Source of the DNA: Isurus oxyrinchus
Taxonomy: Eukaryota
Assembly (NCBI GenBank): GCA_026770705.1
Contig: JANJGN010000026.1
Coordinates: 35,030,001 to 35,094,000 of the forward strand
Reading direction: 5' to 3'
Length of the DNA stretch: 64,000 nt
A program made the position numbers and the translations under genes. The notes beneath the pieces are model-generated. The model ran no database searches, was not told the origin of the DNA, and saw only the letters and a list, made by a program, of their open reading frames with translations. Positions 9,406 through 53,459 of the stretch are shown here, piece by piece (within the stretch, counting starts at the first letter, position 1; every line of letters starts with the position of its first letter).

Positions 9406-9946
9406 ATGAAGCTGAGCCTCACTTTAGTGATCATCTCCCTGGATTTCTTACTTTTCCCTCCGTGTTAGTGTGCTCACTATTCCTGACCAGAATATTTTAT
9501 ACATCCCTTATGTTGTTTTACATTGTACTTTACTTTATTGTATATCTTCTATTATCTTGTTCTTATTGTGCTATGTTATAGTTTATTGTGCTAGAATAAT
9601 ATTGCTTTCATCTTATTACTCTATATCTACATATTCTTCTCAGACTCCACTGACAGTGAAGAAATGTCACAATCTCCCAAGTCAGTGGTTGCTACCAAAG
9701 GAGAAACTGCATCGTTCAGCTGTTCCATTAGAGTAGGAGGACAGATCCTACACTGGTACAGGCAACACCCGGACAGAATCGTGCAGCACCTGGCCAGTGT
9801 TCGGGACAGGATCACAGCTCGGTTGATTGCAGTAGAGAAGAGCAGTGATCTGAATGTTAGTTTCGCTCGAGTGACAGACACCACCACCTATTTCTGTGCG
9901 GTTGGGACACAGTCCAGCAAAGATCAGTAGAGATCGTACAAACACC
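9406..9946 (+). pseudogene. TCR V, family C: open V exon but leader donor mutated (GT>AT)
   Basis: Leader MKLSLTLVIISL+G|atttct (9406-9442). Exon 9644-9907 DSTDSEEMSQSPKSVVATKGETASFSC..WYRQHP..DTTTYFCAVG. RSS CACAGTC-23-ACAAACACC at 9908-9946. Confidence 0.8.
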
Positions 9947-21110: not shown

Positions 21111-22877
21111 TAGCAGCAAACTGAAAGTTCTGAGAGGGCCTTTAATAGGTGGTGTTATCCTATGTAGTGACCGCCTGCGAGAAATTGTGCTGTCTGCACT
21201 TGCTGTCTCAGTGATCCCCCTTTCTTTCTGTGAAATAAACTATCCCAAGGAGACAGTTTCCAGCCCTCCTGCCCCGCTGCTGAAGGACATGTCATTTTTT
21301 CAATCAACGTCCTATCCGAGTGCCTGACTGCAACAACACTTAGATCAGTATCAGAATGTTCATGTGTTGAAAACATATCCCGCAAGTTTACTGTAAACTG
21401 AATTGTTGAGTCGAATTGGGGGTGGGGCAGGAGTTCAAATGTGAATTTGTGAAATAAATTTCCAGCTGGAATGGAAGACGTCGAGACTTCTGCAGAGTTC
21501 AAGGAAATATTTGGGGCATCGTGGGGGAAGGTTCAGAACATCTGCGAATGATTGATGTTAAATTGGCCGCATGGTCTCCAACATACCGAATGATCGAATG
21601 AACTGGTGCACGGCAGGAACTGCGTAGTGTCTGAAGTAAAACTATAAAACTCTGGAGAAGTTCAGCAGGTTTGCAGCTTTGGAGAGTCGGAAACAGATTT
21701 TAGTCGATGATATTCATCATAACTGGAAAAAACTGTAGATGTAACAGGTTGTAAATAATTACGGAGGCAGGCATAGGCGGCATTACATGAAGAAGAAAAT
21801 GGTAGATCAGTGAAACGGTGGCTGGCAGGATAGGTTAAAAGTTACAGGCGAAGTGGCCCAAGGGAAAAATGTAATGGGGCAAGTAAAGAAACGAAATGTA
21901 GCTCTGGCGGAGGTGTACTTAAGGAAAGCAGATTCATCCCTTCGAGTTTCCATCCAAAATGCAAAGAGAAAACATAGAAAGAAGAACAAAGTGCTGTAGA
22001 AAAATTGTTAAATGCAATCTTGAATCCGGAAGGTTAACAAGTGCTGGAAAGCTGCACCTTGTAGTTCCAATCACCGCCACCAGTGGGCAGTGGGAGACTG
22101 TTGTGATCAGTGTTGGGGAGAATTCCAGACTGAGAACAATATTCGGTAACTTTATTGAAGAAAATGTCATTGAAGGAACACATGTGGAAACAAAAATTAT
22201 TTTAATATTCATAGCATGTTTTATATTGTTTAACGTAATTCATTATAATGAGCTGTCAATGTTGCTATTACTGTTGGCATGTTGTTAATATTTGAAAAAA
22301 AAAAGTTCGCGCTGCATCCAAGTGGGGAAGCACACGGGTTCACAATATGAAAGGAGACTGTTGGGCAAATCTTTCTGTTGTCACACTGAGAATGATCGCA
22401 ATCTGGAATAAAGCTTCAGTCAGAATGCGGAAGGACAATGCACTCGAATCGTTGGATGCTGCAGTTGAAGGCGAGATGTAGGGTCTCCCCCGAAAAGAAA
22501 CCTATTGTAAGAGGGAGAGAATAGCTGTTCTAATTTGTCTATCTAACTATATTGTGTACTGTAGCTTGGCGGGAACTCACGTACTTACCGGTACATGCCA
22601 TCAGAGAGCAGTGTGAACCAATGAGAAAATTGAATGTGGGCGGACCGGAGCGAGATCACAAACAGTGTGAGCTGGTGTCAGTGTGACACGCTGAGTGTGG
22701 GCGGGTAAATCCCAAGACTAAGCTTCTTATGTTAGTTCGACAATAAGGCGCCTCTGAGTTGGACCTGAAGCCCGTGTGTAGCTTCTTGTTAGTTCTGCTG
22801 AATATAATATCCATCTTCTGCTTCTAACCTGACCTCCCTGGGCAATCGTTTCAGCCGCTTTTTCATGTGATCTGATA

Positions 22878-23210
22878 ATGATCAGAATTTACATAATCTG
22901 TTTGCTGTTTTTCACTCTGATCTACAAGGAGGTGGCCGGTAAGGATGAGCTGGTGCAGCTCCCTGGGCAGGTGGTCTTTAGGGAAGCGGAAATCGTAACC
23001 ATGAACTGCACTCGCACCACAGCGTTTAACCTCGTGTTTTGGTACAGACAGCTCCCGAATCAGCTACCCCAGTATCTGGCAATGGCCACAAGAGGAACCG
23101 GTCAACAAGGGAGGATCACGGCTTCAATCGGTGAAGGCAGCAAACTCAGTATCCTGACTGTGAGCGATGCCCAAGTTACAGACACTGCCACCTATCTCTG
23201 CGCTGTGGGC
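22878..23210 (+). CDS. TRAV: TCR alpha/delta V segment, family F, single-exon leader+V, apparently functional
   Basis: Continuous ORF MIRIYIICLLFFTLIYKEVAG-KDELVQLPGQVVFREAEIVTMNC..WYRQLPNQ..DTATYLCAVG abutting a canonical RSS. Confidence 0.88.
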
Positions 23211-23249
23211 CACAGTGTAAAAAACATATGTGGCGCTCGTACAGAAACC
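23211..23249 (+). other. 23-RSS
   Basis: CACAGTG-23-ACAGAAACC. Confidence 0.92.
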
Positions 23250-48462: not shown

Positions 48463-48828
48463 ATGCTGTGGATTTACAGAGTCTGTTTTCTCTTATCCAT
48501 TCTGATCTCCACTGAAGTGACCGGTGAAGATGAGGTGACGAAGCTCCCAGTGTGAATTGTTGTCAGTGAAGCGGGATTCGCATCCATGAACTGCACCATC
48601 ATCAGTGGGATGAACGTGGTGCGTTGGTACAGGCAGCTCCCCAATCAGCCACCCCAACATCTTGTAGTGGCCACAAGAGGAACTGATCAACACGGGAGGA
48701 TCTCTGCTTCAGTCGGGGGAGACAACAAACTCAGTATCCTGGCTATGAGGGATGCGCAAGTTACAGACACTGCCACCTATCTAAGTGCCATGAGTGTAAC
48801 AAACAAACTGAGAGCTCGTACAGAAACC
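48463..48828 (+). pseudogene. Single-exon family-F V pseudogene
   Basis: MLWIYRVCFLLSILISTEVTGEDEVTKLPV*..MNC..WYRQLPNQ..DTATYLSA (second Cys lost). Heptamer damaged; nonamer ACAGAAACC retained. Confidence 0.85.
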
Positions 48829-52038: not shown

Positions 52039-52379
52039 ATGTTCCAGATTTACTGGGTTTTCCTGATGGTTTATGCACTTGTCAAGTGAAGCTGAGGTTG
52101 TGCAGCTCCCTGGGCGGCTGGTTCTCAGTGACGTGGGAATCGTATCCATGAACTGCTCGGCTACCATCTCGTACTGGGACAGACTCCGCCCGTAACAGCC
52201 CCTCCAGCATCTGGTTATGGCCACATGTGGTACCGATCAACAAGGAAGGATCACTGTTGCAATCCGGTGAGTCAATAAATTTAGCACAATGACCTTGAGG
52301 GACATCCGAATGACAGACAGCGCCACCTATCTCTGTGCCGTGAGGCCACAGAGTAGCAAATAGAATCCGTACAGAAACC
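52039..52379 (+). pseudogene. Single-exon family-F V pseudogene
   Basis: MFQIYWVFLMV.. leader continuous with EVVQLPGRLVLSDVGIVSMNC; stops and deletions; DSATYLCAVR. CACAGAG-17-ACAGAAACC. Confidence 0.82.
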
Positions 52380-53459
52380 CTGTGGGAGAGCTCCTCTGCT
52401 GTGTTTTGGCATATCCGGTAATAATAATGGAAATCTATAGTGCATGAGCTTAAAATAGAAAATAGTGAAGAGAGAGAGATCAAAAAGTGCGAAATAAAGA
52501 TAAATGGAAACCCAGGCAGGGAAAACAGAGGAGCAAACATGGAAAGGGAGATTGAGAGCAAGAATGGGTAGAAACGTTTGCCAATTCATTTCAGGGAAAG
52601 GACATTAACAAAATAAGAAAAGATGAACAAAGGAAAGTGCAAATAACTAGTGGGAAAAGTAAATGTAGAAGTAAACCTTGAAGGAAAAGATGTAACAACC
52701 AGAAAACTGCATTTTCCTTTAAACTCCCATCCCCCCAGGAGATATTTCAATTGCCTGAAATAGGTCTCTGAATAAAAGGCTGGAAGCTGCCGGAAGATGT
52801 TGATTCCTTTGTGAGGTACATTTCTCCAGCCTCTATTCATTCTATCAGGAAAGAATTTTACTGGATTCGAACACCCAGCGCCTGATATGTTCCTTTCCAG
52901 AGCCACTGGCAGAAAGCGACAGGTTTCCTCATACACATGGAGGAGAGGAACTTGCTGGTCTTCAGACAACTGGCCTGTTCAGGTGTGAGCCGCTGGGCTA
53001 GGGAGCAGCAGATCAACAAACTGCTTCTTTCATCGTGTGAACAATAGTTACAACCAACCCAGAAGCAGAAATTCCACGTGACTTGAAATTGGTTCCTTTA
53101 GGTATCTGGTAATGTGTTTACCCGATATGTGTTCATCTAATGCCAGCTGTTTCATGTTTGCTTATTGACCTGTAAACTTAAGGATGTATCTAGTATTCCT
53201 CATTCTGGCGCTGCTGAGATGTAGGTACAGGAACTGTACTCAGTAACAAACAGTCCTTCTTTCTTTATTCTGGTTGCTTCAGTGCTTCATTGTTTGCATA
53301 TTCTTTACAGTCGATATCTCTCGTACCGATAAATAAATATTATTTTATTCTACTAAATTGCTCTGATAACAAATTACAATTTTTTGACTGATTTCACTTG
53401 TATCACTCGCACTTCGAATACCCGTGAGCTGGTTGTTCCCTCAGTCTCCATGTCGAGAG

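Follow-up and report, generated by a model that had tools for sequence, protein, structure and literature searches.

A split leader is canonical for all antigen-receptor genes, according to the accessible part of PMC12227049. A V gene starting at position 22878 of the window (the whole 64,000-nucleotide stretch of DNA that we analysed) departs from this rule, which raises the question of whether its leader intron is truly missing and, if so, how such a gene arose. A sequence-only reading had claimed that signal peptide and V domain form one open reading frame up to an unrearranged recombination signal sequence (RSS) with a 23-nt spacer. This description holds for the frame at 22878-23210 and the RSS at 23211-23249. 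The intronless leader is real: there is a single frame, an RSS follows it, and the intron is absent family-wide. We read the gene, with a probability of roughly 80%, as an intact cartilaginous-fish TRAV/DV segment that carries leader and V in a single frame, rearranges, and goes back to one precise in-place intron loss followed by duplication.

Leader, V domain and recombination signal

The features of the gene are listed below; family C is a V family with a split leader that served as our comparator.

22748-22769 (+), motif gcgcctctgagttggacctgaa, likely part of the V promoter, 108 nt 5' of the ATG and kept among copies
22878-22940 (+), unsplit leader of 21 codons (MIRIYIICLLFFTLIYKEVAG), a predicted signal peptide from translation, hydropathy and the homologous leader on protein records P0152 and P0004
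22921-22928 (+), tctacaag, the possible acceptor named by the sequence-only reading; phase 0 and not conserved, with AG at this offset in 6/18 intact copies
22929-22930 (+), site equivalent to the phase-1 leader intron of family C by alignment, with 52 nt before it and 11 nt of leader after it; no intron
22939-22944 (+), GTAAGG, a weak donor-like site (phase 1) where leader and V meet in the window's subfamily, in 14/18 intact copies
22941-23210 (+), V domain of TCR alpha/delta type (Cys 23007, Trp 23040, Cys 23199), from translation, Pfam, PDB and Atlas neighbours, and the tree
23211-23249 (+), 23-spacer recombination signal CACAGTG-23-ACAGAAACC, seen in the sequence

The stretch 22878-23210 on the plus strand is one stop-free frame of 333 nt (111 codons), and its translation consists of the leader followed by KDELVQ...DTATYLCAVG. 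The leader reaches a best 9-residue hydropathy of 3.1, compared with 2.2-2.9 in family C leaders, so that the predicted signal peptide is similar in hydropathy to split leaders; cleavage would fall after Gly21. The V frame is open and carries Cys44, Trp55 and Cys108, as expected of a TRAV/DV gene. It matches the Pfam V-set model with an E-value of 3e-07, TCR alpha chains make up most of its best 60 PDB matches, and its Atlas neighbours are mostly TCR alpha V domains.

The heptamer CACAGTG (23211-23217) directly follows the V domain and is separated by a 23-nt spacer from the nonamer ACAGAAACC (23241-23249), which has one mismatch to the consensus. This is the 3' RSS with a 23-nt spacer that TRAV/DV genes carry. 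The window has a single match to CACAGTG-23-ACANAAACC, and 200 mononucleotide shuffles had none. Upstream, a CCTGAA-type motif was found 95-109 nt 5' of the ATG in 10 of the 11 family copies checked, and 40 nt 5' of the ATG in five of six family C genes. A TRAV/DV feature that the gene lacks is the split leader with its phase-1 intron.

On this basis, the gene would be transcribed from its own upstream promoter, and RAG would join its 23-RSS to the 12-RSS of a J-alpha segment. Since leader and V form one frame, expression would need no leader splice. As a donor, GTAAGG at 22939-22944 ranks lower than every one of the 86 J donors and close to the real GTTAGT donor of family C; splicing from it would leave out V-J and connect the leader in frame with C-alpha.

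The window also holds two paralogs on the same strand:

48463-48828 (+), pseudogene paralog with an unsplit leader, an internal stop, Cys2 lost and the heptamer deleted (alignment)
52039-52380 (+), pseudogene paralog with the same ATG and no intron, deletions in leader and V, and a damaged RSS (alignment)

The copy at 48463 aligns without gaps through leader and V, and carries an in-frame TGA, a change of Cys2 to Ser, and a 6-nt deletion through the heptamer. In the copy at 52039, the leader is about 14 nt shorter on balance, there are more deletions as well as stops, and the RSS is shortened. The alignment thus agrees with the earlier proposal that both pseudogenes share the ATG and are without the intron. 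Most of the other V genes in the window are pseudogenes. The window as a whole (1-64000) behaves as one segmental-duplication unit when set beside L056-L061, and an intact gene with a 48463-type pseudogene about 25 kb away recurs at several places on contigs C26, C151 and C152.

A large family and its locus

We searched the 4.98 Gb assembly of the shark genome (G000) for further copies. Of the 57 loci that we looked at, 54 could be mapped through the ATG; two of these fell on one and the same place, so that 53 distinct places remain. The three unmapped loci were one truncated alignment, one family C gene and one orphan on contig C11. Because 150 of 1146 genomic candidates were scored, the family counts are lower bounds, and the family occupies at least 53 distinct places, spread over C26:23.9-40.3 Mb and several smaller contigs. 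The expansion proposed from the window is therefore confirmed, on a scale beyond that first account.

The ATG is kept in 51 of the 53 places. The distance from the ATG to the first Cys is 129 nt in 39/53, is 112-128 nt through deletions in 12, could not be located in two, and is longer in none; the leader intron is thus absent from 51/51 measurable places. Eighteen of the 53 copies are intact, 11 of them on C26 and seven on small contigs, and the latter seven may be haplotype duplicates. Over 11 copies, dN/dS was 0.63 for the leader and 0.53 for the V domain, indicating weak purifying selection on both. The C11 locus (L034, G000:C11:35952189-35952413) is a diverged family copy on another chromosome, without a recognisable leader or RSS, and may be a true orphan.

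We then asked which receptor locus the family belongs to. A genome search with the C region of P0152 recovered one C-alpha-like exon at C242:749506 (48% identity); the search with Pfam PF09291 recovered no C-alpha. Ahead of this exon lies the following array:

G000:C242:660509-742644 (strand not given), J-alpha array of 88 segments ahead of the single C-alpha exon (L121-L129), from FGxG motifs and 12-RSS

All 88 segments 5' of the exon carry FGxG, and 85 have a 12-RSS within five mismatches. The same contig carries four family copies, one of them intact, so that V, J-alpha and C-alpha stand together. From this linkage with the J-alpha array and the C-alpha exon, the family is assigned to the TCR alpha/delta V genes. 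The window's own contig, C26, ends inside the V array, and we presume that it connects to C242.

In the flanking DNA, V-D-D IgH clusters occur among numerous TCR-type V genes, which stand on both strands. The last C exon of these clusters ends in a secretory tail, which we take to be that of shark IgM. Between 24.0 and 40.0 Mb of G000:C26 (for example L051, L052, L062 and L063), dozens of IgM-like heavy-chain clusters are scattered among the genes of the TCR alpha/delta V array across some 16 Mb. Linkage of IgH to shark TCR alpha/delta has been reported (accessible text of PMC12227049), and the interleaving on C26 is a closer mixing than simple linkage.

To collect homologs outside this genome, we searched 1.84 billion representatives with a profile and ran two further searches of 90% clusters. 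Seven close homologs were found: four gene models of the bamboo shark Chiloscyllium punctatum, chiPu_0019058-60 and chiPu_0025496, P0001 (JGI/IMG, on a 1001-nt contig), and the rearranged records P0152 and P0004. All seven start with a leader homologous to that of the 22878 family. The comparison in register covered six (P0154 stood off by one residue); they show 57-68% identity to the best G000 copy, match 12-14 of the 21 leader residues, and have the first Cys equally far from the Met, two of them after a doubled Met is dropped. P0001 and the Chiloscyllium models continue past the V end in a way that resembles RSS read-through. Since these sharks are represented by proteins alone, their exon structure is deduced from the gap-free leader and this apparent read-through. 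We considered, and dropped, a secreted product of the unrearranged read-through frame; the tails after the V end run from about 6 to 66 residues among the homologs. The protein search returned no longer homologs at E<=0.001 among 164 candidates.

The record P0152, from another shark, combines a family V with a J and a C region. This C region includes SKGLLSTN, which the accessible text of PMC5931798 gives as the peptide of the nurse-shark C-alpha primer. On the strength of this record, a rearranged TCR-alpha chain of at least one shark starts with the collinear leader. The literature searched yielded no description of the germline exon structure of its V, and no match of the family or of P0152 was obtained to the alpha-V numbering of PMC5931798, whose accessible part covers junctions only.

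The second rearranged record, P0004, joins a V of the 22878 alpha family to a TCR-beta-type J and C. G000 contains two distinct beta-type D-J-C cassettes, at C31:1330016-1347501 (L068, L072, L073) and at C2826:21799-35465 (L067, L071, L078). The C31 cassette has V genes upstream, while the unplaced C2826 cassette has no V within 23 kb upstream, and the ends of C2826 held repeats only, giving no placement. The start of the P0004 C region is closer to the C2826 exon (59%) than to the C31 exon (55%). Possible readings of P0004 are a trans-rearrangement, a chimera from cloning, and a second beta-type chain drawing on V-alpha genes.

Contigs from six sequencing runs, which we guessed to be RNA, were aligned to the window gene (X9-X12) and to the paralog L021 (X7, X11, X12 and X13). 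They gave a few short V pieces of low depth, one 100-nt piece with 5'UTR and ATG, and pieces over the unrearranged RSS; none spans the former intron site. One low-depth X9 contig (window 22746-23046) runs from promoter-like sequence straight into mid-V; the roughly 300 nt left out have no GT-AG ends, and the contig is probably a deleted paralog rather than a splice.

Origin of the unsplit leader

One rival explanation takes the apparent leader for an in-frame reading of a pyrimidine-rich intron end and places the real leader in an upstream exon, which would be spliced to an AG near 22928. Intron ends can indeed look like leaders at this locus: a family C intron end aligns with the 22878 leader in tblastn, and the record P0136 is a read-through call of such an intron end on a family-C-like gene. 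The AG at 22927-22928 also stands after a T-rich tract. Splicing into tctacaag was what the sequence-only reading had named as evidence against an unsplit leader, and it is very unlikely because the site is in phase 0, recurs in a third of the intact copies (as listed above), and has no upstream leader-exon candidate for the 22878 gene. A phase-1 AG is conserved nowhere; the best is found in 4/18 intact copies and lies 3' of the leader. The canonical phase-1 AG is present in 0/18 intact copies, compared with an AG acceptor just 5' of the mature start in 7/8 other V genes of the window, and the single AG common to 18/18 intact copies is a phase-0 AG within the mature V. When the 1.4 kb upstream were scanned for leader exons, candidates appeared in 3/18 intact copies, all different; the same scan recovered the upstream exon for 5/8 other window V genes and is thus moderately sensitive. 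The retained family ATG and the homologous leaders that begin both rearranged records also speak against an upstream exon. As far as the genomic and protein sequences indicate, this explanation appears largely refuted already, and we regard it as very improbable.

With the unsplit leader as the preferred reading, its origin can be examined against the split-leader comparator in the window:

9406-9946 (+), family C V gene with exon 9406-9463, intron 9464-9643, V exon, and RSS at 9908 (extraction)

This gene has its ATG at 9406, an exon of 58 nt, a phase-1 GTTAGT donor and an intron of 180 nt, as the earlier claim of a split family C leader had it. In each of the six family C genes extracted, a phase-1 intron of 179-197 nt interrupts the leader, of which 11 nt remain 3' of it. 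These genes and the 22878 family have the V framework, the RSS and the leader layout in common, with 52-58 nt in the exon-1 part and another 11 nt after it; the intron is what the 22878 family lacks. Its own layout is canonical, with 52+11 nt, as expected if the intron had been excised exactly; neighbouring V genes have exon 1 lengths of 46-61 nt.

The second rival explanation is exonisation: exon 1 and its donor would have been lost by deletion, the acceptor disabled by mutation, and a new signal peptide begun at an ATG from the T-rich 3' end of the intron. About 108 nt separate the promoter-like motif from the ATG here and 40 nt in family C, so that the interval has room for an intron remnant. 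The three bases before the old junction are CTG, CGG or AGG, each one change off CAG, but the junction bases are uninformative because exon and intron ends share a CAG-like consensus. We therefore compared nucleotide profiles. The -70..+9 profile around the ATG exceeded shuffles against the family C 5'UTR in 2/6 genes (0/300 and 3/300) and against the intron in 0/6, and the mean z over 160 nt was 1.05 against the 5'UTR and -0.28 against the intron. For the 52-nt leader part, anchored identity was 38% to family C exon 1 (28% expected) and 37% to the intron end (31% expected). The longer -70..+52 profile outscored most shuffles when set against two intron ends of family C (9/300 and 22/300) and against one spliced 5' end (7/300). 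In sum, the ATG-proximal region favours the 5'UTR expected under intron loss, and the leader itself matches exon 1 and the intron end about equally. The exactly canonical leader layout also argues against exonisation, which we consider unlikely.

The sequence comparison thus favours precise loss of the leader intron as the best-fitting origin, owing to the 52+11 layout and the likeness of the ATG-proximal region to the 5'UTR, despite the near-equal match of the leader to the intron end. Such an event would have removed the phase-1 intron in place and spared promoter, ATG and RSS. Recombination with cDNA from a spliced germ-line transcript, the route proposed by the sequence-only reading, is put slightly ahead of a clean genomic deletion, at close to even odds, on general knowledge of intron loss.

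A further explanation is that the family consists of processed retrocopies like the marsupial TRMVj, without rearrangement. The missing leader intron is shared with TRMVj (accessible text of PMC2275272), but there is no joined D or J, 18 copies have an intact 23-RSS, the upstream sequence is conserved, the copies are embedded among other V genes, and the rearranged record P0152 has its own junction. We give this explanation a negligible probability. A processed retrocopy inserted elsewhere is likewise excluded, because promoter and RSS are retained.

To place the family among other V genes, we built a tree of 47 V domains over 93 columns, the 47 representatives being chosen from 270 extracted; it includes two avian domains. 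The 12 family rows form one clade (98/98). In the best tree, their sisters are family C and a Callorhinchus model (68/76). The two avian domains, from curlew and song sparrow rather than chicken, were typed as TRAV1-like by the QVQQ motif described in the accessible text of PMC10972964.

These domains bear on another possible history, in which the shark family and avian TRAV1 are one ancient intronless V-alpha lineage with a single loss before the split of cartilaginous and bony fish. [quoted passage not shown] Against a common lineage, the avian QVQQ-type domains lie far from the shark family in the best tree, where the split family C and the Callorhinchus model are nearest to it, and scored lowest among nine V domains compared (31-38 bits versus 45-74 for the others); the leaders of the two groups have nothing visibly in common. 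A single ancient loss is thus improbable, and the loss in the shark family was probably independent of that in chicken TRAV1.

The favoured history is one loss within sharks, which would be placed in an ancestor that this shark has in common with bamboo sharks. Segmental duplication together with neighbouring V genes would then have produced 50 or more copies, about one third of them intact.

A second V family in G000, represented by L041 (C131:733103-733372) and L042 (C38:4767384-4767656), also has ATG, leader, V and RSS in one frame (MLGQIRAGGFALVITLCVKC-KEDVIQ...). A sequence scan detected neither an acceptor nor an upstream leader exon for these two loci. This family has 33 matches, mostly on C1-exon-rich contigs; most have stops, and three are full-length without stops. 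Its Scyliorhinus torazame homolog, P0092, has a different N-terminus. The L041/L042 family is possibly a second intron loss, and it may have come about by the same in-place route.

Meaning and comparison with known systems

If the reading is true, the V domain lies about 190 nt nearer the promoter than in the split neighbours of the same locus. Shark TCR-alpha is hypermutated, with 17 germline V segments only (PMC5931798), and mutation by AID begins about 100 nt after the promoter, a boundary in the leader intron according to Rada 1994 as cited there (PMC2212980; both sources in their accessible parts). Because shark TCR-alpha hypermutates and AID spares the first 100 nt or so, a shifted or damped mutation footprint would be expected, and the locus would naturally allow one to ask whether the 5' boundary of hypermutation depends on distance or on the leader intron. 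Since intronless and split V genes share one hypermutating TCR-alpha locus, the effect of the leader intron on usage and on this boundary would be measurable from repertoires. We offer only tentatively the full picture of an old V-alpha lineage that lost its intron independently of birds through in-place replacement by a spliced copy, with a shifted or damped hypermutation footprint and altered usage.

V-gene finders that demand a splice acceptor would miss or misannotate about 50 genes of the locus. Receptor function and the mechanism of V(D)J joining are unchanged by the finding. We found no report of an unsplit shark V leader in the literature searched, a scope that leaves outside most subscription papers, including the main nurse-shark TCR locus papers; the accessible parts of PMC12529555, PMC5278385 and PMC12698447 do not mention an intronless shark V. 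Among shark TCR alpha V genes known from cDNA, the rearranged TCR-alpha chain P0152 uses the 22878-type V family.

The supporting V-delta of NAR-TCR is not known to have a leader of its own, and its acceptor receives the NAR-TCR V exon. By this definition, the 22878 gene is of another kind, with its own ATG and leader and no conserved phase-1 acceptor. The marsupial TCR-mu TRMVj likewise lacks the leader intron, and retrotransposition has been proposed for it (accessible parts of PMC2275272 and PMC6170632); TRMVj is pre-joined to D and J, whereas the 22878 family is unrearranged, and the window gene has an intact RSS and no J. In chicken TRGV1, most members share a single-exon leader (accessible text of PMC10972964), but these genes belong to the gamma locus and their signal peptides are predicted to be poor, while the shark leader is present on rearranged chains.

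The closest parallel is chicken TRAV1 (V-alpha-1). According to the accessible text of PMC10972964, which cites Gobel 1994 and Parra and Miller 2012, leader and V share a single exon in 45/48 of these genes, and the genes are numerous and rarely used in the spleen. The single-exon leader arrangement is therefore not new, and the sequence-only reading was right to name an avian V-alpha subgroup with an unsplit leader. The shark family is like chicken TRAV1 in being a TCR alpha V family with leader and V in one exon, a 23-RSS, and an expansion with many pseudogenes. The TRAV1 subgroup is defined by 75% nucleotide identity (PMC5278385) and a QVQQ start motif (PMC10972964), both as given in the accessible portions. 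The 22878 gene shares the single-exon leader and RSS with it, but has no QVQQ, shows 24-37% amino-acid identity over partial alignments to the two avian QVQQ-type domains, and has an unrelated leader and a cartilaginous-fish host. The split-leader rule thus gains a second large rearranging exception, in cartilaginous fish, which most likely arose by convergence with chicken TRAV1. Sharks have a large rearranging V-alpha family with an intronless leader that is TRAV1-like in its working and lies outside TRAV1 by sequence.
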